Assembly: GCA_964392965.1 (NCBI GenBank)
Contig: CAYMSA010000001.1
Coordinates: 6,689-65,472, forward strand
Reading direction: 5' to 3'
Source: an uncultured Coriobacteriaceae bacterium
GTDB taxonomy: Bacteria > Actinomycetota > Coriobacteriia > Anaerosomatales > Anaerosomataceae
DNA: 58,784 nt
Below the pieces are notes generated by a model. It saw only the letters and a list, made by a program, of their open reading frames with translations, was not told the DNA's origin and searched no databases. Below are positions 4,959 through 17,124 of the stretch, in pieces (the stretch's first letter is position 1; each line of letters opens with the position of its first letter). Made by a program: the position numbers and the translations under genes.

Positions 4959-5249
4959 CTACAGCATCTCCTCGACTTCCTCGGCACCCTCGGCATAGAA
5001 CTTCGCTTCGTCGGGATCGAGCTCGTAGAGCAGGCGCAGAAACTCGCCGGCGTGGACCCTCTCCTCGTCGGCGATGTCCTTCAGGACACGTGCGGCGAGG
5101 TCGTTGTCCGTCGACTCGGCGAGCTGCATGTACAGCTGCACGGCCTCGTACTCGGCGGCGATCATGAACCGGATCGCACGCACGAGCTCCTCATGCGTGA
5201 CCGTACGCCCCGCCGCGGCGCCGCTGAAGGGATTACTGAACTCGGGCAT
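4959..5249 (-). CDS. Small ferritin-like/rubrerythrin-fold protein (EncFtn-like half-ferritin)
   Basis: 96 aa. AAEYEAVQLYMQLAE ... DIADEERVHAGEFLRLL gives the E..(A)..Y and EE..H di-iron ligand pattern of the roughly 100-aa encapsulated-ferritin-like family. The C-terminus (EEVEEML) shows no obvious encapsulin targeting peptide. Confidence 0.6.
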   Translation of the reverse strand: MPEFSNPFSGAAAGRTVTHEELVRAIRFMIAAEYEAVQLYMQLAESTDNDLAARVLKDIADEERVHAGEFLRLLYELDPDEAKFYAEGAEEVEEML

Positions 5250-5338: not shown

Positions 5339-6637
5339 TCAGCGCGAGCCGATCTCGCAGAGCACCTCTTCGGCCGCCTGTGTCATCAGGTCAATGTCAT
5401 CGTCGGTGTGTCCGAGCCCCACGAACGTCGCCTCGAACTGGCTCGGCGCGAGCATGATGCCGCGCTCGAGGAGCCCGCGGAAGTACGCTCCGTAGCGCTC
5501 CGTGTCGCTCGTCGACGCGCTCGTCCAGTCACGCACCTCGGTGCCGGTGAAGAAGAGACACGCCATCGAGCCCACGCGCGTCAGGAAGGCATCGACACCG
5601 GCCCGCTCGACCGCCTGCCGGAGTCCTGCTTCCAGCCGCGCGCCCTTGCGCTCGAGTTCCTCATAGACGCCGGGCTTCGCAAGCTCGCCGAGCATCGCGA
5701 GACCGGCGACCATGGCCACCGGATTGCCCGAGAGCGTCCCCGCCTGATACACGGGACCGACCGGCGCGAGGCACTCCATGATCTCCCGGCGTCCACCGAA
5801 GGCACCCACCGGGAAGCCCCCGCCGATGATCTTGCCGAGTGTGGTGAGGTCGGGCGTGACACCGTAGCGCTCCTGCGCTCCGCCCCTCGCCACCCGGAAC
5901 CCGGTGATGACCTCGTCGAATATGAGCACGACGCCGTGACGGTCGCAGAGCTCACGCAGTCCGGCGAGGAAGCCGTCGGCAGGTGGGACGACCCCCATGT
6001 TGCCCGCGACCGGCTCCACTATGATGGCGGCTATCGTATCGCCGTCAGCCTCGAGCGCTGCCGCCACGGCATCGAGGTCGTTGTAGGGCAGTACGATGGT
6101 GTCAGCGGCAGCGCCCTTCGTGACGCCGGGCGTGCTCGGGATGCCGAGCGTCAGCAGGCCGCTCCCCGCGGCCACCAGCAGCGCGTCCGAGTGACCGTGG
6201 TAGTTGCCGTCGAACTTGATGAATCGGTCCCGGCCCGTGTAACCCCGAGCGAGGCGGATGGCGCTCATCGTTGCCTCGGTGCCGCTCGAGACCATCCGCA
6301 CCATCTCGATTGAGGGGACCGCCTCCACGATCGCCTCGGCCATCCTGACTTCGAGCTCGGTGGGGGCACCGTAGCTCGTGCCCCGATCAAGCTGCCCACG
6401 AACCGCGTCGAGCACGGCATCTGGCGCATGGCCGAGGATCATCGGTCCCCAGGAGGCGACGAAGTCAAGGTACTCGGTGCCGTCGACGTCCCATACGCGC
6501 GCACCTTTCGCGCGATCGTAGAACACCGGCCCCGTTCCGACGCTGCGAAAAGCACGCACCGGCGAGTTGACGCCACCCGGTATCACGCGCTCCGCCGCGT
6601 CGAAGAGCTCCGCCGACCGAGTCCGCTCGTGTGTCAT
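5339..6637 (-). CDS. hemL: Glutamate-1-semialdehyde 2,1-aminomutase
   Basis: [34 protein letters not shown]...; PLP-lysine region [18 protein letters not shown]. Start trimmed from track ORF (6748) to Met38 at 6637, which has an AAGGGA RBS upstream. Confidence 0.92.
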
Positions 6638-6735
6638 CGTTGAGTCCCTTCTTTCGTGCATGTCAGTCCGGCCCGTCGCCTGGTTCCCGGGCATCAGCCT
6701 CGGGCGGCCCAGCGCGAACAGCTCCCCGGAGACGC

Positions 6736-8034
6736 CTAGCTCTGCCACCCCTCGGGGACGTACGCACAGTACGGCTCCTCGGCCAGGTAATCACCGGTGA
6801 GTGCGAACGCGCGGGCCCGGCATCCGCCGCAGACCGCCTTGTACTCGCACGCACCGCACTTGCCCTTGAGGAGCGAGTAGTCTCGAAGCTCGTTGAAGAC
6901 CTTCGACTCGGTCCAGATCGTCGAGAACGGCTGCTCCCGGACGTTGCCGAGCTGCATGTCGAAGTACCCGCACGGCTGCACATCGCCCGTGTGGCTGATG
7001 AAGCCGAACGTGATACCCGCAAGACAGCCACGCGTCATCGCGTCGAGCCCGTACTCCTCGCGTGTCACCTTCCGGCCCTCGGCCTTGGCAAGCTGCCGGA
7101 TGATGCGATAGTAGTGCGGCGAGTCAGTCGGCTTGAAGTGGAGCGGACTCGTCTTCTGGCGGTGGTACGCCCAGGTGAGCACGCGCTCGTACTCTTCGGG
7201 TGGGAGCTCCTCATCCACGAGCTGACTGCCGCGCCCCGTCGGAACGAGCATGAAGATGTGGAACGCGTCTACACCGAGCTCCTCGGCAAGGTCGTGGATC
7301 TCCTCGAGCAGATGCGCGTTGCGCTTCGTGACGGTCGTGTTGATCTGTACCCCGACGCCATGGCGCTTCGCTCGCCTGATGCCCTCGACGGACTGATCGA
7401 AGCAACCCGGCTGGCCGCGGAAGGCGTCGTGCCCCTCGGCCGTGGGGAAGTCGATGGAGACCGAGATGCGCGGGATGCGGTGCACGGCCATCGCTGCGGC
7501 GACCTCGTCGGTGATGAGCGTGGCGTTCGTGCCGATCACGGGCATGGCGCCCCGCTCGTGGCAGTAGTCCACGATGTCCCAGATGTCGGGTCGCATGAGC
7601 GGCTCGCCGCCGGTCAGAATGATGATGGGGTTGCTGATCGTCACGATGTCGTCCACGACCCGCTTGATCTCCTCGAGCGTCAGCTCGCCCGCGTAGTGCC
7701 CGAACTCGGACGCTGCCCTGCAGTGAGCACACGAGAGATTGCAGCTCCTCGTTATCTCCCAGGCGATGATGCGAGGTGCCTTGATGCCCGTGCGCTCCTC
7801 ATACGCGAGGGCGTCGGCTCCCCCACCCGGCCGGAAGCCGACGCTGCGCGCTCCGCCATGTCGCTGGCGCTCGCCCCCCGCCCCGCCGAGATGCCCGGGG
7901 TGCCCTGCAGCGGGATATCCCATGGGCACCGCAGCCGCCTGCGTCCCGCATGGGGCGAGGGCTTCCGCCAGCTGTTGCTCGTCGATCGGGCCGGAGCCAG
8001 CGGGTGCGCCGATCGGGTGGCTGCGATCCGTCAT
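6736..8034 (-). CDS. ahbD: Radical SAM/SPASM enzyme, AhbD/NirJ2-like (putative anaerobic coproheme decarboxylase, heme synthase)
   Basis: [20 protein letters not shown] (CxxxCxxC), [33 protein letters not shown], and a C-terminal Cys-rich SPASM region ([18 protein letters not shown]). Gly/Pro/His-rich N-terminal extension. ATGA overlap with the hemB stop. Confidence 0.7.
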
Positions 8035-9017
8035 GACCTGTCCTCCAGGAGCCAGCGAGCCGCGTCCTTCGCATGGTAGGTGATGACGAGGTCGGCTCCT
8101 GCGCGTTTCATCGCCGTGAGCGTCTCGAGCACGATACGCCGCTCATCGATCCAGCCCTGCGCGGCCGCCGCCTTCACGAGCGCGTACTCGCCGCTCACAT
8201 TGTACGCTGCGGTCGGATAGCCGAAGCGGTCCTTCACCAACCGTAGCACGTCGAGGTAGGCGAGCGCGGGCTTCACCATGACGATGTCGGCACCCTCGGC
8301 GATGTCGAGAGCGGTCTCGCGGAGCGCCTCCTCCGCGTTCGCCGGGTCCATCTGATACGCCTTGCGGTCACCGAACGCCGGGGCGCTGTCGGCTGCCTCG
8401 CGGAAGGGTCCATAGTAGGCCGACGCGTACTTGGCCGAGTACGCCATGATCGGCGTCTCGGCGAAACCCTCGGCGTCGAGCGCGGCACGGATCGCGCCGA
8501 CACGTCCGTCCATCATGTCCGAGGGCGCCACCATGTCCGCACCGGCACGCGCGTGTGAGACCGCGACGTCGGCGAGCATGCCGAGCGTCACGTCGTTGAT
8601 GACGCAACCGTGCTCGTCGAGCGCGCCGCAGTGCCCGTGGCTCGTGTACTCGCACATGCATACGTCCGTGATCACCGTGTACTCCGGGTCGTGCGCTTTG
8701 ATCGCCCGAATCGCCTGTTGCACGATACCTTCGGGATCGGCGGCTCCACTCCCTATCTCGTCCTTCACATCGGGTAGTCCGAAGAGAAGCACCGCCGGCA
8801 CGCCGAGCGTCTTCAGCTCGTCGATCTCGGAGGGCAACTGGTCGAGTGTCAGTTGGAACACGCCGGGCATCGACGAGACCTCGTCGCGGGCACCGGTGCC
8901 GAACTTCACGAACAACGGATAGACGAGGTCGCCCGTGTCGAGGGCGGTCTCGCGCACCATCGATCGCAACGTCGCGGTGCGGCGCAGACGCCTCGGGCGA
9001 TACCGTGGGAACTCCAT
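8031..9017 (-). CDS. hemB: Porphobilinogen synthase (delta-aminolevulinate dehydratase)
   Basis: RPRRLRRT...[28 protein letters not shown], active-site [12 protein letters not shown]. Confidence 0.93.
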
Positions 9018-9026
9018 GGGTCCTCC

Positions 9027-9863
9027 TCAGGACTTCGTGCCGGTCTGTCTCATCTTGAAGTGGGCGACGATCGCATCGACCAGCCCTGCCACGGTCGACG
9101 GCACCGCCTCGATGGCGGCGGGGACCCCTCGCTCCACAAGCGCGCCGGTCGTGATCGGGCCGATGCTCGCGGCCACGGCGGTGGCCATCACGGATGACAC
9201 GTCGAGACCCCCCGCTTCGAGCCACGCCATGAAATGCCTGACCGTCGACGGGCTCGTGAACGTCACCACCTGCACGGCTCCCGCGGCGAGCGTCTCGAGT
9301 GTGGCAGGAGCCGGAATCGCCGGCACCGTTCGGTATGCCGGGACGACATCCACGATAACACCTCTGGCCCTGAGGGAATCGGGCAGGATCTCGCGCGCTT
9401 CCTCCGCACGCGGGACAAGCACCCGCGAGTCGGCGCCGACACCTGCCGCGCCGAGCGCCTCGAGGAGCCCCTCGGCGCGGTAGTCCTCGGGCATCATGTC
9501 CGGCTCGAGTCCTGCCTCCTGCAGCCGTTCGGCGGTGCCTGAGCCCACCACGGCGATGCGCAGGCCCGCAAGCTGACGAAGGCTCACGCCGAGAGTGTTC
9601 GCCCGGCCGAGGAACCTGTCGACCGCGTTGACGGACGTCAGGACGATCCAGTCGTAGCGATGCAGGGCGATGAGCGCCTCATCCATCGGACGAGGGTCGG
9701 GAGGATCGATGATCGCGATCACCGGGGCGACGAGGACCGTGGCGCCGAGGCCCTCCAGTGGCTCCGCCAGCGCGGAGGCCTGGTGGGCCGTACGCGTCAC
9801 CAGCACGACGACACCGGCGAGCGGGCGAGTCGGATCGAGGGCGGCCTGTGGCTCCCGTGACAC
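9027..9863 (-). CDS. hemD: Uroporphyrinogen-III synthase
   Basis: 278-aa HemD-only protein (VVVLVTRTAHQASALAEPLEGLGATVL...; VTFTSPSTVRHF), positioned between hemC and hemB. Confidence 0.8.
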   Translation of the reverse strand: MSREPQAALDPTRPLAGVVVLVTRTAHQASALAEPLEGLGATVLVAPVIAIIDPPDPRPMDEALIALHRYDWIVLTSVNAVDRFLGRANTLGVSLRQLAGLRIAVVGSGTAERLQEAGLEPDMMPEDYRAEGLLEALGAAGVGADSRVLVPRAEEAREILPDSLRARGVIVDVVPAYRTVPAIPAPATLETLAAGAVQVVTFTSPSTVRHFMAWLEAGGLDVSSVMATAVAASIGPITTGALVERGVPAAIEAVPSTVAGLVDAIVAHFKMRQTGTKS

Positions 9864-9872
9864 GTCCGCTCC

Positions 9873-10832
9873 TCAGGTCCCGACGCGTTCGTCACGATCG
9901 CTGGAAGCACGGACCTCGGCCAGCGGTTCGGCGGCGCCGAGTTCCAGCAGACGCGTGGTCATCGCCCGCCCCAGCGACTCAGGATCACCCACACTCCCCG
10001 TCATGCGCTCACGGATGATACGGGTGCCGTCCACGCTCCCTACCAGCGCGTCCATCACGAGTGCCTCCGCCTCCAGGCGGGCGTATGCCCCGATAGGCAC
10101 CTGGCAGCCACCCTCGAGCAGCCGCATGACCGTCCGCTCGGCGGTGACGCACTCCATCGTCGCGGAGTCGGCGATTCGCTCCATGAGCCCGGCCACCCAC
10201 GAATCGTCTTCGCGGATCTCGATGCCGATGGCGCCCTGGCCCACGGCAGGTACCATCTCATCGACCGAAAGACGGTGCGTGATGCGGTCGGCCCACCCCA
10301 TGCGCGTGATACCGGCACTCGCGAGGACCACGGCGTCGACCTCTCCGCGCTCGGCTTTGAGCATCCGCGTATCGAGGTTGCCGCGCACGTCCACGATCTC
10401 GACGTCCGGACGCAGCGCGCGCACCTGGGCGACCCGCCGCAACGACGAGGTGCCGATGCGGGCGCCACGAGGCAGCGCCTGCAGGTCGCAGGACCTGCTG
10501 CCTACGAGCACATCGCGCGCATCAGCCCGCTCGGGCATGGCCGCGATGATGAGTCCATCCGGCAGTGTCGTGGGGACGTCCTTCATCGAGTGCACGCACA
10601 GATCGACCCCACCGGCCAGAAGCTCGACCTCGAGCTCCTTGGTGAACAATCCCTTGCCGCCGACCTTGGCGAGCGGGACGTCGAGCACCTTGTCGCCCGT
10701 CGTCTTGATGACTCTCAGGCTTACAGACGCGCCGGTCATCGGCTCCAACAGCGAGCGCACATACTCGGCCTGCCAGAGAGCGAGCTTGCTTCCGCGCGTA
10801 CCGATCACCAGGGCGGATCGCTCACGCTCCAC
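9873..10832 (-). CDS. hemC: Hydroxymethylbilane synthase (porphobilinogen deaminase)
   Basis: IGTRGSKLALWQAEYV, KTTGDKVLD, GKGLFTKELE, VHSMKDVP, GCQVPIGAYA. Confidence 0.93.
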   Translation of the reverse strand: MERERSALVIGTRGSKLALWQAEYVRSLLEPMTGASVSLRVIKTTGDKVLDVPLAKVGGKGLFTKELEVELLAGGVDLCVHSMKDVPTTLPDGLIIAAMPERADARDVLVGSRSCDLQALPRGARIGTSSLRRVAQVRALRPDVEIVDVRGNLDTRMLKAERGEVDAVVLASAGITRMGWADRITHRLSVDEMVPAVGQGAIGIEIREDDSWVAGLMERIADSATMECVTAERTVMRLLEGGCQVPIGAYARLEAEALVMDALVGSVDGTRIIRERMTGSVGDPESLGRAMTTRLLELGAAEPLAEVRASSDRDERVGT

Positions 10833-12186
10833 AGCAGCCCCGTTCTTCGGCCTCGGCCTGTTCGGTGTACTCGCCCGTCGTCCCTGACGCGATGACCGTT
10901 CGTATAGCCCTGCAGCGGGTCTCGTCCAGACAGTCGACGCCGAACAGGTCGCGGGCCACCTCCGTGTATGCGTACGCCTCCTGCCAGGAGGAGGCCTCCC
11001 GCAGGCGTGTGGTCGGTTCGTGGAGCAGCTTGTTGACGATACGTCGCGTCAGGCGCTCCACTGCCGCCGTCTCTTCAGCCGAGAGCCCGAGCCGTCGCAC
11101 CGTCTGAGCGACCTCCTGCTCCCTGATCTCCTCGGCACGACCCCGTATGGCCTTCACCGTGGGAACGACCTGCATCCAGCCGACCCACTCGAAGAAGGCA
11201 CGCATCTCCTCGTCGATGATCGCCTCGGCGCGGCCGGTCTCCGCACGGCGCCCCTCCATGTTGCAACGGACGACGCCGGAGAGGTCGTCGATATCGCACA
11301 GGTGCACGCCAGGGATCTCGGCGACTGCGGGGTCGATGTCCCGGGGCACCGCGATGTCGATAAGGAAGAGCGGCGCAGTCCGCTGGCTCATCACCCGGGC
11401 AAGCCCGTCGCGGGTGATGAGACACTCGGGCGATGAGGAGGAGGAGATGACGATGTCCGAGGCTGCGATTGCCTCGTAGAGCTGTTCGAAGGGGAGGGCC
11501 AGGCCGGAGAAGGCGCTCGCGAGCTCACGTGCGCGCTCGAACGTCCGGTTGACCACGAGTACCTGTGCGGCGCCCTGCCCCGCCAGATGCTTGGCTGTGA
11601 GCTCGGCCATCGCGCCAGCACCGACGAGCAGGACGGTGCGACACTCGAGGGAACAGAGGATCTGCCTGCCCTTCTCCACCGCAGCGTAGCCGACTGAGAC
11701 AGCCGAGCGGCTGATGCCCGTCTCCATCCGGACGCGCTTACCCACTTCGAAGCTCTGGCGGAAGAGGCGGTTGAGGACGCGACCCGTCGTCCGGGCTTCG
11801 GATGCGGCCCGGTACGCCTCCTTGAGCTGTCCGAGTATCTGCGCCTCCCCCACCACCATGGAGTCCAGCGAGGAGACGACCCGGAAGAGGTGGCGCACCG
11901 CCCGCTCACCCATCATCACGTACAGATAGCGCTTGAAGTACTCGGAGTCCAGCCGATGGAAGCTGTCGAGGACATCGAGGACCAGGCCCGGTCCGTCACA
12001 CGAGGCAGACGTCACCGCGTAGATCTCGGTGCGGTTGCACGTGGAGAGGATCACGACCTCGTGCACGTCCTCCTGCTCGCGAAACAACTCAAGCGCCTTG
12101 TCCTGTGCGTGCTTCGGGAAGGCCAACTGCTCGCGAACCTCGATGGGTGCTGTCTTGTGGCTGACACCGATGACGAACAGACGCAT
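10822..12186 (-). CDS. hemA: Glutamyl-tRNA reductase
   Basis: MRLFVIGVSHKTAPIEVRE, ILSTCNRTEIYAV, NAD-binding VLLVGAGAMAE. TGATG overlap with the hemY stop. Confidence 0.93.
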   Translation of the reverse strand: MRLFVIGVSHKTAPIEVREQLAFPKHAQDKALELFREQEDVHEVVILSTCNRTEIYAVTSASCDGPGLVLDVLDSFHRLDSEYFKRYLYVMMGERAVRHLFRVVSSLDSMVVGEAQILGQLKEAYRAASEARTTGRVLNRLFRQSFEVGKRVRMETGISRSAVSVGYAAVEKGRQILCSLECRTVLLVGAGAMAELTAKHLAGQGAAQVLVVNRTFERARELASAFSGLALPFEQLYEAIAASDIVISSSSSPECLITRDGLARVMSQRTAPLFLIDIAVPRDIDPAVAEIPGVHLCDIDDLSGVVRCNMEGRRAETGRAEAIIDEEMRAFFEWVGWMQVVPTVKAIRGRAEEIREQEVAQTVRRLGLSAEETAAVERLTRRIVNKLLHEPTTRLREASSWQEAYAYTEVARDLFGVDCLDETRCRAIRTVIASGTTGEYTEQAEAEERGCCGA

Positions 12187-13763
12187 CAGGACCGCTTCCT
12201 TCCCGGAGCCGCACCCGGCAGAGCCGGGTCCTCTTCAGAGACGATGCCCCATTCGGCGAACAACTTCGTCACCGCCGCCTCACCACTCTCGATGCAGTTG
12301 GGAATGCCGACACCATGGTACGCACCGCCCGCGAGCGCGATGCCTGTAAGCGCGTCGAGGCGCCGCTCGATGACCGACACACGGTCCAGATGCCCGAGCG
12401 TGTACTGGGGCATCGCCCGCTCCCATCGGTAGACCTTCGCGAAGACGGGCTGCGCATCAGGCTCGATGCCGAGCAGCTCCACCATCTCGCGCCGTACCGA
12501 CTCGATCATCTCGGCGTCCGTCAGCTCCATGAGGTGCTGGTTCTGCGGTCCGCCGATGAAACCGCGCAACAGCACACGATTACCAGGAGCGCGGTCCGGC
12601 CACTTGGACGACGACAGGGTAAGGGCGAGCACCGAGCGCTTCTCCACCAGAGGACACAGGATACCGAACCATCCACGGTCGAATGGACAGTCTTCGGCGC
12701 GAAACGCCATGGGGACCGTCGCGGAGGAGGAGTACGGGATGCAGGCGAGCAGGTCGGCAGCCTCCGGGTCCACGCCGGCGAGGAGGTCGGACGCCGCCCA
12801 GGCCTCGGTCGCGACGACGACCGCATCGGCCTCCAGCGCCTCGCCCGTGTCGAGCTCAACCCGCCAACGGCCATCGGCGAGGCGGTCCAGCGGCGAAGCG
12901 GCCACTCCGGTCATGATGCGCTCCGGCCCCACGGCCTCGCCGAGTGCGTCGGTAATCCGCTGCATCCCGCGCTCGAAGCTGTTGAAGAAGGCCCAGGGTT
13001 TCCCGCCGGGAGGCGCAGGATGCCGCCTGCGCGCCTCCTCGCGGCGCTTGCGCTCGGCGAGGAAGCCGAGGATGAGCGAGCCGTGCTCCTGCTCCATCTC
13101 GAGGAAGTTGGGGAAGGTGGCCGCCAGCGACATCCGCGAGGGGTCGGAGGCGTGAACGCCGCCGACGAGCGGTTCGGCGAGACGGTCGAGCGCCTCGCGT
13201 CCCATACGGCGCACCACGAAGCTCTCGAGGCTCTCGTCGTGGTCCCGGGCGCTCTCACCGGGCGCCCAGCGTGACTTCCTCGGCAGGACCAGGTCGAGCG
13301 CCATCCGGAACTTCGCCGGCCACGAGTAGAGCGACGTGGTGGCGAACGGCACGATCTTCGTCGGCGCGAACATCATGATGCCATCGGGGACCTCGATGAG
13401 ACGATGGCCCTTCACGATGAGCGTCTTCTTGTTCTCCTCGCGAGCGGGCACGATCTCGTCGGCGATGCCGAGCATCCCCGCTACGCGACGCACCGCCGGC
13501 TTGGCGGCGACGAACGCGTCCGAGCCGCCGTCGACGACGTACTCGCCGCCACCGGCCCCGGAGATGATGTCCGTGCGGAGCTTTCCGCCGAGACGGTCGC
13601 TTTTCTCAAGGAGCAGACAGTCGACGTCATAGCCGGCCTCGGCCGCGCGCCGCACCTTGTACGCGGCCGCCAGCCCCGCCGCACCGCCGCCGATGATGAT
13701 TACCTGCCTCACAGACGTCCTCTCAAGTGCCCCCGGCAGCTCACCGGTGCACGTGGTCCTCAT
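12186..13763 (-). CDS. hemY: FAD-dependent coproporphyrinogen/protoporphyrinogen oxidase (HemY/CgoX type)
   Basis: IIIGGGAAGLAAAYKV dinucleotide fold and C-terminal GVGIPNCIESGEAA, typical of HemY. ATGA overlap with the hemH stop supports the 13763 start. Confidence 0.85.
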   Translation of the reverse strand: MRTTCTGELPGALERTSVRQVIIIGGGAAGLAAAYKVRRAAEAGYDVDCLLLEKSDRLGGKLRTDIISGAGGGEYVVDGGSDAFVAAKPAVRRVAGMLGIADEIVPAREENKKTLIVKGHRLIEVPDGIMMFAPTKIVPFATTSLYSWPAKFRMALDLVLPRKSRWAPGESARDHDESLESFVVRRMGREALDRLAEPLVGGVHASDPSRMSLAATFPNFLEMEQEHGSLILGFLAERKRREEARRRHPAPPGGKPWAFFNSFERGMQRITDALGEAVGPERIMTGVAASPLDRLADGRWRVELDTGEALEADAVVVATEAWAASDLLAGVDPEAADLLACIPYSSSATVPMAFRAEDCPFDRGWFGILCPLVEKRSVLALTLSSSKWPDRAPGNRVLLRGFIGGPQNQHLMELTDAEMIESVRREMVELLGIEPDAQPVFAKVYRWERAMPQYTLGHLDRVSVIERRLDALTGIALAGGAYHGVGIPNCIESGEAAVTKLFAEWGIVSEEDPALPGAAPGRKRS

Positions 13764-14725
13764 CGATCCAGCAGTTCACGGGCCGCCCGCGCAATCGCGC
13801 ACGCCAGCCGGGGATCCGCATTCGGCAGTGCCGAGCGAACGAACGAGACGCCGGCTTCCTCGGCCACCGAACGTGCTACGACGTCGAGATCGTAAAGCGT
13901 CTCCATGTGGTCCATCACGAACCCTACCGGCACGACGACGACACCTCGATGGCCCGCTGCCGGCAGGAGTCTTATCACATCGTCGAGGTCCGGCCCGAGC
14001 CAGTCACCGCCGCGGGCACCGCGCGACTGGTACGCAAGCAGCCACGGCCGCGCCCCGGCCGCCGCGCCGAATGTCGGGACGCCGGGAATCGGCTCGCACC
14101 GTGCGCCGCCTGCAAGACCAAGCCGCCCGGCGATCTGTGCGACCACGGCCTCGAGGCCGCGTACGTACGCGTCGTCGCGGCGCGCCTCCTCGGCTGGCAG
14201 GCTGTGCGCGGTGAAGACGAGCGGCGCGCCCGGCACATCACAGGCCGCGAGCGCATCGAAGATCGCACGGCAATGCAGGTCGACGAAGACCGGCGATTCG
14301 CAGAGAAGCGGCACCTCGACCGAGCTCACCCCGGGATGCCCGAGGAGCGCGTCAGCCAGCGCCTCGCGATAGCTGTCGACCGTGATCGCGGCAGGATACG
14401 GCGAGAGCGAGACCAGCGCGATCCGATCCGCGCCCTGCGAGACGAGCGCGTCCACGGCATCCGCGATGTACGGGCGCCAGTACCGCATCCCCACCTCCAC
14501 CGGAAGCGGGGTGCCCGCTGCTGCGAGCTCGGCCGAAACCGCCCCGGCAAGCTCGCGTGCGGTGAGGAGAAGCGGTGAGGACCCGCCGATCGCCGCGTAG
14601 CGCGCAGTGACGCGCGCGACGAGGTCAGCCGACGGCTCCCGACCCGTGAGCTCGCGCAGGAATGGCGCGACCGCTCCAGGCGAGTCGGGTCCGCCGTATC
14701 CCGCGATGAGAATGCCGCCGCGCAC
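13760..14725 (-). CDS. hemH: Ferrochelatase (HemH/CpfC type)
   Basis: GYGGPDS, SPLLLTARE, VFTAHSLP, PVGFVMDHMETLYDLD. Confidence 0.9.
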   Translation of the reverse strand: MRGGILIAGYGGPDSPGAVAPFLRELTGREPSADLVARVTARYAAIGGSSPLLLTARELAGAVSAELAAAGTPLPVEVGMRYWRPYIADAVDALVSQGADRIALVSLSPYPAAITVDSYREALADALLGHPGVSSVEVPLLCESPVFVDLHCRAIFDALAACDVPGAPLVFTAHSLPAEEARRDDAYVRGLEAVVAQIAGRLGLAGGARCEPIPGVPTFGAAAGARPWLLAYQSRGARGGDWLGPDLDDVIRLLPAAGHRGVVVVPVGFVMDHMETLYDLDVVARSVAEEAGVSFVRSALPNADPRLACAIARAARELLDR

Positions 14726-15796
14726 CTACACCGAGCCCCTGATCCGCCGGGAGTGCTCGTGCACCGCGTCGATCATCGTGCGGACCTTCGCAGGGTCGCT
14801 CGTCTTGTGGATGCCATGGCCGAGGTTGAAGACGTGCCCGGGGCGCGAGCCGACCGCCTCGAGTATCTCGGCCACCATACGCTCAAGCTCGTCGTCCGGA
14901 GCGAACAACGCGACCGGGTCGATGTTGCCCTGTATCGCGAAGCGCGGATCGATCCTCCGCACGGCGTCGCGCATGTCCAGGCGCCAATCGATACCGAGCA
15001 CATCGCCCCCCGCCTGCTGGACGAGGTCGAGCATCGACGTCGCGCCATTGGGGAAGTGGATGACCGGCACGCCACCTGCCGCGACCGCCGAGCCATGCGC
15101 GGTCACCGCGTCGATCACCCGGCGGGTGTAGGGGAGCACCGACCGCTCGTAGTCCCTCGGAGCCACGTAGCCGACCCAACTGTCGAAGAGCTGTACGACC
15201 TGGGCACCGGCGTCGATCTGCGCCGACAGGTAGGCGATCACCGTGTCCGAGATCTTCGTCATGAGCTCGTCCCAGGCAGCTGGCTCACCCCACATGAGTG
15301 CCTTCGTGTGTTCGTAGTCGCGGGTGCCGTGCCCCTCGATCATGTAACTTGCCAGGGTGAAGGGTGCCCCGGCGAAACCGATGAGCGGCACCTTGTGTTC
15401 CAGCTCCCGCCGGAGCAGAGCTATGGCCTCCATGACGAAGCCCGTGTCCTCCAGCGGATCGGCCACCTTGAGCTGCCGGACGTCCCGGGCGCTACGCACC
15501 GGATTGTGGATCACCGGGCCTTCGTTCTTCGCAAACTCGAGATCGAGGCCCATGCCGGGAAACGACACCAGGATGTCACTGAAGAGGATGGCCGCGTCCA
15601 CCTCAAACGCGTCGACCGGCTGCAGGGTCACCTCGACGGCCAGCTCGGGCGTGCGACACATCTCGAGGAAGCCGTACCGCGCACGCAGGGCCCGATACTC
15701 GGGCATGTAGCGACCGGCCTGCCGCATCATCCAGACGGGCGTGCACTCGGTGGGCTCCCGGCGGACGGCTCGGAGGAAGAGATCGTTGTAGGGCAT
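14726..15796 (-). CDS. hemE: Uroporphyrinogen decarboxylase
   Basis: PVWMMRQAGRYMPEYRALR, ILFSDILV, FDSWVG, HVFNLGHGI. Confidence 0.93.
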   Translation of the reverse strand: MPYNDLFLRAVRREPTECTPVWMMRQAGRYMPEYRALRARYGFLEMCRTPELAVEVTLQPVDAFEVDAAILFSDILVSFPGMGLDLEFAKNEGPVIHNPVRSARDVRQLKVADPLEDTGFVMEAIALLRRELEHKVPLIGFAGAPFTLASYMIEGHGTRDYEHTKALMWGEPAAWDELMTKISDTVIAYLSAQIDAGAQVVQLFDSWVGYVAPRDYERSVLPYTRRVIDAVTAHGSAVAAGGVPVIHFPNGATSMLDLVQQAGGDVLGIDWRLDMRDAVRRIDPRFAIQGNIDPVALFAPDDELERMVAEILEAVGSRPGHVFNLGHGIHKTSDPAKVRTMIDAVHEHSRRIRGSV

Positions 15797-15927
15797 AGGC
15801 TCGAATCCTCGTCTGTTCGACGAACGGCGTCAGGCGCCTATGCTACCACGGGCGATAGGTGCTCTCGGCGCGTGCTACCCTAACGGTTGCGCAACTACCG
15901 ATCGCTCGTCTTCCGGAGGCTCCGTTC

Positions 15928-17124
15928 ATGGCCCACATCCGCTCGCTCTTCTTCGAAGGACCACTCGCCGAGGTCGAAGACAAGGCGCTCAAGGCAGCCC
16001 GGCTGGGACGGCCTTCGGACGTCATCTGGAACATCACGAACCGCTGTAACCTCCGGTGCGACCACTGCTACATGGCAGCAGACGCGCATGCCCTTCCCGA
16101 TCAGCTCTCCGACGCAGAGGCGATCGACCTGGTCCGGCGGATGGGCGAGGCAGGTGTGCCCGTCGTCTTCCTCTCGGGCGGCGAGCCTATGATGCGCCCG
16201 AACTTCTGGGAGATCCTCGCCGAGGTCAACGCCCAGGGCGTGCGCCCCACGATATCCACGAACTGCACGCTCATCGACGATGCGGCCGCGAGGCGCCTGA
16301 AAGAGTACGGTGTGCGCTGGATCGCCACCTCTCTCTACGGGCCCGCCGACTTCCACGACACGATGGTGGGTGTCCCGGGCACCCACGCACGCGTCCTCGA
16401 TGCCGTGCGCGCACTGCGGGCTGAAGGCGTCGGCGTGGTGCTCAAGACCGCCCTCTCGCGCCACACCTGGCCGTACATCTACGACATCATCCAGACAGCT
16501 AAGGACCTCGACTGCGGGCTCGTCTACATCTGCGACCTCATCACCTCGGGCAGGAGCGCGGGCGAGGACGACGCGCGCGTCTCGACCACCCAATGGCGGG
16601 AGCTCGCCGACTTCATCGTGGAGGACATGCTCGCCCCCGACGTGACGCTCGAATACGACGTGGGCGCGCTGCCCTCGGTCGTCCCCTACATCGCCGAGCG
16701 GTTCACCGAGCGCGGCGTCGATGTCACGAAGGGCTTGGAGCGCCTGAAGATCATGAGCGCATGTCCTGTCGGCAAGGGACACATGACCATCACCTCGGAG
16801 GGCGGCATCATGCCGTGCCAGTTCGCCCAGGACTGGATCGTGGGCAACGTCCGCGACATGTCACTCGCCGAGGCCACGCGCGCCCTGCACGCGATCGACC
16901 TCGAGGAGTGCACGGGCGCGTGCGCGCCCTCGGCATGCACGTACTCACGCATCTGCCGGGGCTGCCGCGTGAAGGCCTGGCAACGCGAGGGCGACTACCT
17001 CGCCGAGGACACCACGTGCATCCTGTACCCACGGTCCACGGAGTCGCCGGTCGATATCCCCGGCGTCTCGAATCCCGCCCATCCGTCGGCTGGCGGTCCC
17101 TGCCATATGATGGGCGGCTGCTGA
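15928..17124 (+). CDS. Radical SAM/SPASM enzyme, AhbC/NirJ1-like
   Basis: VIWNITNRCNLRCDHCY (CxxxCxxC), FLSGGEPMMRPN, C-terminal Cys-rich region (CPVGKGHMTITSEGGIMPC ... CRGCRVKA). Start trimmed to Met24 (15928), preceded by GGAGG. Divergent from hemE. Confidence 0.65.
   Translation: MAHIRSLFFEGPLAEVEDKALKAARLGRPSDVIWNITNRCNLRCDHCYMAADAHALPDQLSDAEAIDLVRRMGEAGVPVVFLSGGEPMMRPNFWEILAEVNAQGVRPTISTNCTLIDDAAARRLKEYGVRWIATSLYGPADFHDTMVGVPGTHARVLDAVRALRAEGVGVVLKTALSRHTWPYIYDIIQTAKDLDCGLVYICDLITSGRSAGEDDARVSTTQWRELADFIVEDMLAPDVTLEYDVGALPSVVPYIAERFTERGVDVTKGLERLKIMSACPVGKGHMTITSEGGIMPCQFAQDWIVGNVRDMSLAEATRALHAIDLEECTGACAPSACTYSRICRGCRVKAWQREGDYLAEDTTCILYPRSTESPVDIPGVSNPAHPSAGGPCHMMGGC

Follow-up and report, generated by a model that had tools for sequence, protein, structure and literature searches.

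A nine-gene heme operon of an Anaerosomatales-like bacterium combines coproporphyrin-route genes with an AhbD orthologue

Gene content of the operon

The sequence investigated here is a stretch of 58,784 nucleotides (nt), called the window below, with a G+C content of ~67%, from contig 1 (CAYMSA010000001.1) of an uncultured Coriobacteriaceae bacterium (GCA_964392965.1) belonging to an Anaerosomatales-like order. At positions 5339-15796 its minus strand holds nine contiguous open reading frames (ORFs) in the order hemE-hemH-hemY-hemA-hemC-hemD-hemB-ahbD-hemL. We consider it likely that this operon is a complete heme b pathway of an obligate anaerobe, in which the coproporphyrin route is finished by AhbD, a radical S-adenosylmethionine (SAM) enzyme. 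Families were assigned by Pfam and NCBIfam models with their curated cut-offs, and all nine ORFs lie far above the cut-off of their own family (HemL, radical SAM/SPASM, HemB, HemD, HemC, HemA, HemY, HemH and HemE). The genes, in order of transcription, are the following.

14726..15796, minus strand: hemE, uroporphyrinogen III decarboxylase, 356 aa, with which the operon begins (TIGR01464, 437.7 bits, cut-off 303; PF01208), ~80% identical to the hemE of relatives
13760..14725, minus strand: hemH, short ferrochelatase of the soluble type, 321 aa, putative coproporphyrin ferrochelatase CpfC (PF00762, 211 bits)
12186..13763, minus strand: hemY, FAD-dependent porphyrinogen oxidase, 525 aa, putative CgoX (TIGR00562, 264.6 bits, cut-off 98)
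10822..12186, minus strand: hemA, glutamyl-tRNA reductase, 454 aa (TIGR01035, 472 bits)
9873..10832, minus strand: hemC, hydroxymethylbilane synthase, 319 aa (TIGR00212, 351 bits)
9027..9863, minus strand: hemD, stand-alone uroporphyrinogen III synthase without a CobA methyltransferase domain, 278 aa (PF02602, 206.6 bits)
8031..9017, minus strand: hemB, porphobilinogen synthase, 328 aa (NF006762, 505 bits)
6736..8034, minus strand: ahbD, orthologue of the radical SAM/SPASM heme b synthase, 432 aa (TIGR04545, 490.9 bits)
5339..6637, minus strand: hemL, glutamate-1-semialdehyde aminomutase, its ORF being open back to a GTG at 6748 (TIGR00713, 612.8 bits)

Most of these genes overlap or nearly touch. 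The hemH/hemY and hemB/ahbD junctions are ATGA overlaps (13760-13763 and 8031-8034), the hemA start overlaps the hemY stop in a TGATG (12184-12188), hemA and hemC share 11 nt (10822-10832), and hemE directly abuts hemH with no spacer. The spacers between hemC and hemD and between hemD and hemB have 9 nt each, with a GGAG inside. A previous reading of this stretch, made from the sequence alone (the sequence-only reading), had already described the nine minus-strand heme genes and the four overlaps, and we found both the ORFs with their families and the overlaps exactly as it gave them. The hemL start is most likely the ATG at 6637 (or 6661) rather than the GTG at 6748, judging by a Shine-Dalgarno-like AAGGGA before ATG 6637 and by the HemL model (TIGR00713), which begins only at residue 45 of the long ORF. 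With this revised start, 74-98 nt separate hemL from the ahbD stop (6736). Terminator-like hairpins are no more frequent within the operon than chance would give (3 against an expected 2.9). We infer that the nine genes are expressed as one transcript.

The genome from which the window comes has 1.94 Mb in 157 contigs and is 96% complete. It was compared with 40 relatives of the order (17 families), giving a sample of 41 genomes. A larger sample of 99 genomes of the order, each at least 90% complete, served for the distribution of AhbC and of the divergent radical SAM gene described below, and 401 Coriobacteriia genomes were searched for ChdC.

The AhbD orthologue

The 432-aa protein encoded between hemB and hemL reaches 490.9 bits on the model for the heme b synthase AhbD (TIGR04545, curated cut-off 500), ahead of TIGR04053 (335 bits), NirJ2 (329) and AhbC (207). 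Nine orthologues from the same tight AhbD clade pass that cut-off, with up to 511.6 bits. The protein has the radical SAM motif CNLSCAHC and a SPASM domain, and the cysteines of both (C98, C102 and C105 in the first; C337, C355, C393, C396, C402, C405 and C423 in the second) are invariant among 38-39 orthologues. In the tree, every AhbD of the order falls in one tight clade, with the sequences of siroheme-only genomes nested on short branches among the coproporphyrin-type ones, and this clade joins the named heme b synthases, separate from AhbC. The homologues nearby in sequence come from Coriobacteriia metagenome bins, where they carry the annotation heme b synthase or radical SAM protein, some of them being fused to AhbA/B-type domains. 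The slot after hemB is also the one that ahbD occupies in sister genomes having CobA-HemD, AhbC (697 bits, above cut-off) and AhbA/B. By sequence, the 432-aa protein is thus an orthologue of AhbD, including the AhbD of sisters predicted to run the complete siroheme pathway. The sequence-only reading had called it AhbD/NirJ2-like.

An N-terminal extension of ~85 aa (residues 1-88), of low complexity and rich in Gly, Ala and Pro, is a feature of AhbD in this order and lies outside the family model. Its C29 is conserved in 36 of 36 aligned sequences, and a short acidic motif (IDEQQLA or IDEQEMA) was found by pattern in 14 of 39. A search by sequence retrieved no AhbD structure from the PDB, the best match being PqqE.

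HemY and HemH

The closest solved structure to HemY is that of B. subtilis HemY (3I6D), and those closest to HemH are the coproporphyrin III ferrochelatases of Listeria and Bacillus. HemH conserves the Tyr in GYGGP, which is of the CpfC type, the catalytic His in AHSLP and a METLYD motif. By these similarities HemY may prefer coproporphyrinogen III and HemH coproporphyrin III. The window HemY is 67-73% identical to the second and 56-61% to the first of the tandem copies found in relatives, so that on sequence identity it corresponds to the distal one. Most coproporphyrin-type relatives have two such hemY paralogues in tandem after hemH, 55-60% and 67-73% identical to the window HemY (e.g., L125:10609-13499 in G002; L126-L142, L201-L210), and a single hemY is found in this genome and in the mixed-type genomes.

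Genes absent from the genome

Searches of the genome, in which the controls were detected each time, gave no match for ChdC, AhbA/B, AhbC or HemF, no homologue of CgoN (DUF1444) and nothing above cut-off for a uroporphyrinogen methyltransferase. Cytochrome bd and heme-copper oxidase also gave no match. The lack of chdC, which the sequence-only reading had noted for the window, therefore extends to the whole 96%-complete genome. It extends further to the order (0 of 41 genomes) and to 400 of the 401 Coriobacteriia genomes (PF06778). The sole Chlor_dismutase match in the class is a fragment of 66 model positions in an open frame of 97 aa (G078:C2:126225-126416), probably a remnant or a contamination.

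The places where relatives carry their siroheme genes are also empty in the window: hemD has no cobA domain, there is no ahbC between hemD and hemB, and no ahbAB between ahbD and hemL. The sequence runs through all these conserved slots without a break, so the siroheme genes cannot lie concealed in a gap of the assembly.

Two HemN-like genes occur elsewhere in the genome. One encodes a ChuW/HutW-like radical SAM protein below cut-off (167 bits against 400; L007:1-1344, minus strand, contig 67), nearest to the anaerobic heme-degrading methyltransferase, and may act in anaerobic heme turnover. The other, downstream of purD (L187:1396-2700, minus strand, contig 84), passes NF006385 ('coproporphyrinogen III oxidase family protein') with 494 bits. 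It reads CxxxCxxCxF, with Phe replacing the fourth Cys of HemN, and its 102 bits against the HemN model fall short of the cut-off of 325. The heme chaperone HemW also does without the fourth cysteine of true HemN. Such a HemW-like protein is present in all 41 genomes of the order in one to three copies, including the siroheme-only genomes without hemE, and in several families a copy lies 0.1-4 kb from hemY (e.g., G026:C14, G039:C44). We rejected this gene as a coproporphyrinogen dehydrogenase or decarboxylase on account of its motif, its low HemN score and its presence in genomes without hemE. The genome-wide check proposed with the sequence-only reading, which covered chdC, ahbA/ahbB, the siroheme genes, hemN/hemW and cgoN, thus left a HemW-like gene and no ChdC, AhbA/B, methyltransferase, CgoN or true HemN.

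Operon types across the order

An AhbD orthologue is present in 39 of the 41 genomes, always at the position hemB-ahbD-(ahbAB)-hemL. In 33 of the 41 we found hemE and hemY, in a separate operon of the form hemE-hemH-hemY or hemE-hemH-hemY-hemY. The core operon itself has two forms. The siroheme type reads hemA-hemC-(cobA~hemD fusion)-ahbC-hemB-ahbD-ahbAB-hemL, with a 514-aa CobA-HemD fusion in the hemD position, and the coproporphyrin type reads hemA-hemC-hemD-hemB-ahbD-(remnant)-hemL. A uroporphyrinogen methyltransferase was found in 12 of the sampled genomes and a strong AhbA/B in 11-12. By gene content, the order is a mosaic of predicted siroheme-only, coproporphyrin-only and mixed genomes sharing one AhbD, a pattern that we describe here as new.

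A diverged AhbA/B-like ORF stands beside ahbD in a further 12 genomes. It is intact, lies between ahbD and hemL, matches PF17805 with E values of ~1e-10 to 1e-13 (e.g., L145, L147, L149, L153, L154, L156, L165, L167), and these genomes have no methyltransferase or AhbC; the ORF could be a leftover or have taken on a new purpose. There is no AhbA/B-like remnant in the window.

In none of 80 genome loci, 20 hemE regions and 12 close metagenome loci is hemE-hemH-hemY joined to hemA. The nine-gene fusion of both operons is therefore found only in this genome among the loci compared, and it is reported here as new.

Proposed pathway

In the pathway that we propose, HemA, HemL, HemB, HemC and HemD would produce uroporphyrinogen III, which HemE would decarboxylate to coproporphyrinogen III. 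The HemY-type flavoenzyme would then oxidize this to coproporphyrin III, and the short CpfC-type ferrochelatase would insert iron to give coproheme. In the last step AhbD, with its two predicted auxiliary Fe-S clusters, would turn the propionates of rings A and B into vinyls, with SAM replacing peroxide, and release heme b. Because AhbA/B, AhbC and the methyltransferase are absent, coproheme could come here only from HemY plus HemH. With ChdC lacking in this genome and in virtually all of the class, AhbD would be the only terminal enzyme. Its activity on coproheme is suggested by its orthologues: in the siroheme-only sisters AhbD must convert coproheme to heme, so the same activity is the natural inference here. 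We consider the pathway as a whole to have good probability. The hybrid with an O2-independent terminal step that the sequence-only reading had put forward is supported by the HemE/HemY/HemH front end, by the orthology of AhbD and by the absence of ChdC and of the siroheme branch.

The hybrid of coproporphyrin route and AhbD is itself an already published prediction and is not new. According to reviews, AhbD is found in Gram-positive anaerobes that use the coproporphyrin pathway and have none of the other Ahb enzymes; ahbD is said to lie together with hemY/hemH, and an enzyme like AhbD 'might be responsible' for the last step under anaerobic conditions (PMC13564367, PMC10114771, PMC10548856).

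The radical SAM gene divergent from hemE

A second radical SAM/SPASM gene, which we call rSAM2, is divergent from hemE.

15797..15927, no strand: intergenic region of 131 bp between the divergent hemE and rSAM2, read from the sequence
15928..17124, plus strand: rSAM2, second radical SAM/SPASM gene, 398 aa, with GGAGG 8 nt before the ATG at 15928, placed in a third clade beside AhbC and AhbD

The best NCBIfam matches of rSAM2 are AhbD (184 bits), NirJ1, AhbC and NirJ, all far below their cut-offs. We considered whether it could be a displaced AhbC and rejected this, since it scores 158 bits on the AhbC model (TIGR04546, 12,18-didecarboxysiroheme deacetylase; cut-off 650) and forms with archaeal sequences a separate third clade that is neither AhbC nor AhbD (support 100). 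The family is small when clustered at 50% identity.

In the 99-genome sample, rSAM2 is present in 65 of the 68 genomes that have hemY and no AhbC, and in none of the 29 with AhbC (18 siroheme-only and 11 mixed), where the weak matches are cross-matches to ahbD. Genomes differ in their rSAM2/AhbC state within a single genus and also within three families. Only 3 pairs that can be placed on the AhbD gene tree give independent contrasts between AhbC and rSAM2 (sign test, p = 0.25), and the mutual exclusion is thus suggestive, not proven. In relatives the gene stands alone, with no heme genes and no precursor peptide in its neighbourhood; in L087 it is 5 kb from ahbD, behind unrelated genes.

The nearest relatives outside the order are found in Bathyarchaeota-like archaea and are 36% identical over the full length. 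In 6 of 6 archaeal loci the rSAM2-like gene lies immediately upstream of an AhbD/NirJ2-like gene, with hemE next in two of them. An Lrp/AsnC regulator and a protein of 181-226 aa usually precede the gene pair (L266:7453-11266, L268:6873-10262, L271:83-3357). The small protein has no counterpart beside the window rSAM2, and no HemY or HemH homologue was found in the genome of one of these loci (L266). Taken by their distribution and neighbours, these genes point to rSAM2 as a tetrapyrrole enzyme acting with HemE and AhbD and able to stand in for the siroheme branch.

We tentatively suggest, as a possibility well short of an even chance, that rSAM2 founds a third family of tetrapyrrole radical SAM enzymes and supplies the O2-independent component that the coproporphyrin route of strict anaerobes is missing; its simplest role would be that of a coproporphyrinogen III dehydrogenase yielding coproporphyrin III. 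If true, this would explain why nearly every Anaerosomatales genome relying on hemE-hemH-hemY has rSAM2, why rSAM2 and the siroheme branch never occur in one genome, and why the Bathyarchaeota relatives of rSAM2 adjoin an AhbD-like gene in a genome without HemY.

Alternative explanations

Several points weigh against the proposed coproporphyrin-AhbD pathway. AhbD lies 9 bits under the curated TIGR04545 cut-off, and a HemN-like radical SAM gene is present elsewhere in the genome. HemY-type oxidases are described as O2-dependent, yet this organism shows no sign of aerobic life, and the HemY step as written is without a known anaerobic mechanism or electron acceptor. The sequence-only reading had found the CgoX-type oxidase an awkward fit for the same reason, and its unease is justified because CgoN, HemF, cytochrome bd and heme-copper oxidase are all absent from the genome and because the cultured relatives are obligate anaerobes (PMC9686372). 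This leads to an extension of the pathway rather than a strict rival, in which HemY would be insufficient under anoxia and rSAM2 would supply an O2-independent step between HemE and AhbD, most economically from coproporphyrinogen III to coproporphyrin III, alone or with HemY. We regard it as possible though doubtful. It agrees with the position of rSAM2 as an own clade within the tetrapyrrole-modifying radical SAM/SPASM group, with its place next to hemE in this genome, with the absence of CgoN, and with its distribution (65 of 68 against 0 of 29, with flips in one genus and three families). The archaeal loci also speak for it, all six having the AhbD/NirJ2-like neighbour, two of them hemE, and one lying in a genome without HemY or HemH. 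Conversely, HemY is kept, and often duplicated, in nearly all genomes with rSAM2, which would not be expected if rSAM2 had replaced it. Eleven genomes have hemE-hemH-hemY without rSAM2, the gene has no heme neighbours in relatives, the three independent contrasts give only p = 0.25, and a radical SAM porphyrinogen oxidase would be without precedent.

Another alternative is the classical protoporphyrin route, in which a HemN-like enzyme or rSAM2 would decarboxylate coproporphyrinogen III and HemY and HemH would act on the protoporphyrin forms; AhbD would then be left over or serve some other purpose. The HemN-like gene that passes NF006385, with copies close to hemY in several families, fits this explanation, but the same protein has the CxxxCxxCxF of HemW, reaches 102 of the 325 bits set for HemN, and is found in all 41 genomes, including those that lack hemE and could not make its supposed substrate. 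AhbD, moreover, is kept with invariant catalytic cysteines where every other Ahb gene has been lost, and we consider this route very improbable. Still less credible, to a degree that makes it nearly negligible, is that a ChdC or a siroheme branch was missed in an incomplete and fragmented metagenome bin, or that the nine-gene array is an assembly chimera of two operons. The 157 contigs and the 96% completeness would allow for a missed gene, and all sampled relatives do keep hemE-hemH-hemY and hemA-...-hemL as separate operons. However, 37 high-quality relatives have no ChdC and the class lacks it too, the siroheme slots are empty inside contiguous sequence, and the overlap of hemY stop and hemA start in TGATG is not expected from a chimeric join and therefore argues against one.

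Comparison with known systems

The operon resembles the coproporphyrin-dependent pathway of Firmicutes and Actinobacteria in having HemE, a HemY like the CgoX of B. subtilis and a short CpfC-like ferrochelatase in one operon, with no HemF or true HemN. It differs in the defining last enzyme, ChdC (HemQ), which neither the genome nor the order has and which almost the entire class lacks, and in its host, an obligate anaerobe that has no terminal oxidases. From the protoporphyrin-dependent pathway it differs in having neither HemF nor a HemN with CxxxCxxCxC. With the siroheme-dependent (Ahb) pathway of Desulfovibrio and Methanosarcina barkeri it shares an AhbD of the same family (TIGR04545) and clade, with the full radical SAM motif and, in the SPASM domain, seven cysteines for two auxiliary [4Fe-4S] clusters; unlike there, AhbA/B, AhbC and the methyltransferase are absent, and AhbD has the extension of ~85 aa with its conserved cysteine and a score 9 bits under the cut-off. 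The published prediction of AhbD in anaerobes with the coproporphyrin pathway (Dailey et al. 2015/2017, as summarised in PMC13564367, PMC10114771 and PMC10548856) also has ahbD with hemY/hemH and no other Ahb genes. Here, in contrast, this combination is the rule for a whole order, in which siroheme-type and mixed genomes with the same AhbD also occur, and in this one genome the nine genes stand in one operon.

It is understood only in part how strict anaerobes on the coproporphyrin route produce heme in the absence of O2 and H2O2; AhbD is assumed to take the place of ChdC in them. We know of no oxygen-free coproporphyrinogen oxidase other than the CgoN of Bacillaceae. In Priestia megaterium, CgoN (YtpQ, DUF1444) is the coproporphyrinogen III oxidase that needs no oxygen (PMC10965808). 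It addresses the same gap, the anaerobic oxidation of coproporphyrinogen III in the coproporphyrin-dependent pathway; it is a flavoprotein, with no DUF1444 homologue here, whereas the candidate rSAM2 is a radical SAM/SPASM protein. The rSAM2 family thus offers a concrete candidate for this unsolved step. The order is a natural experiment, with sister genomes predicted to follow the route by siroheme, that by coproporphyrin or both, all finishing with the same AhbD, and with cultured obligate anaerobes among its members. This genome has no ChdC as a back-up, which leaves AhbD as the only candidate for the last step.

Heme demand and neighbouring genes

The members of the order in culture are obligately anaerobic and have multiheme cytochromes; heme synthesis is not discussed in their description (PMC9686372). 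A demand for heme is seen in this genome as well, which encodes NrfH/NrfA-like, Cgr1-like and further multiheme cytochromes. The main predicted users of c-type heme are the NrfH/NrfA-like nitrite reductase genes, a Cgr1-like tetraheme cytochrome and a five-CxxCH cytochrome (L184 on contig 54, L185 on contig 13 and L183 on contig 16).

Downstream of hemL, after 89 bp, a gene of 96 aa (4959-5249, minus strand) matches Rubrerythrin with 32.5 bits and an EncFtn-like family with 20.2 bits, the latter below its cut-off of 27. In one relative (L200), a rubrerythrin gene follows the rSAM2 orthologue.

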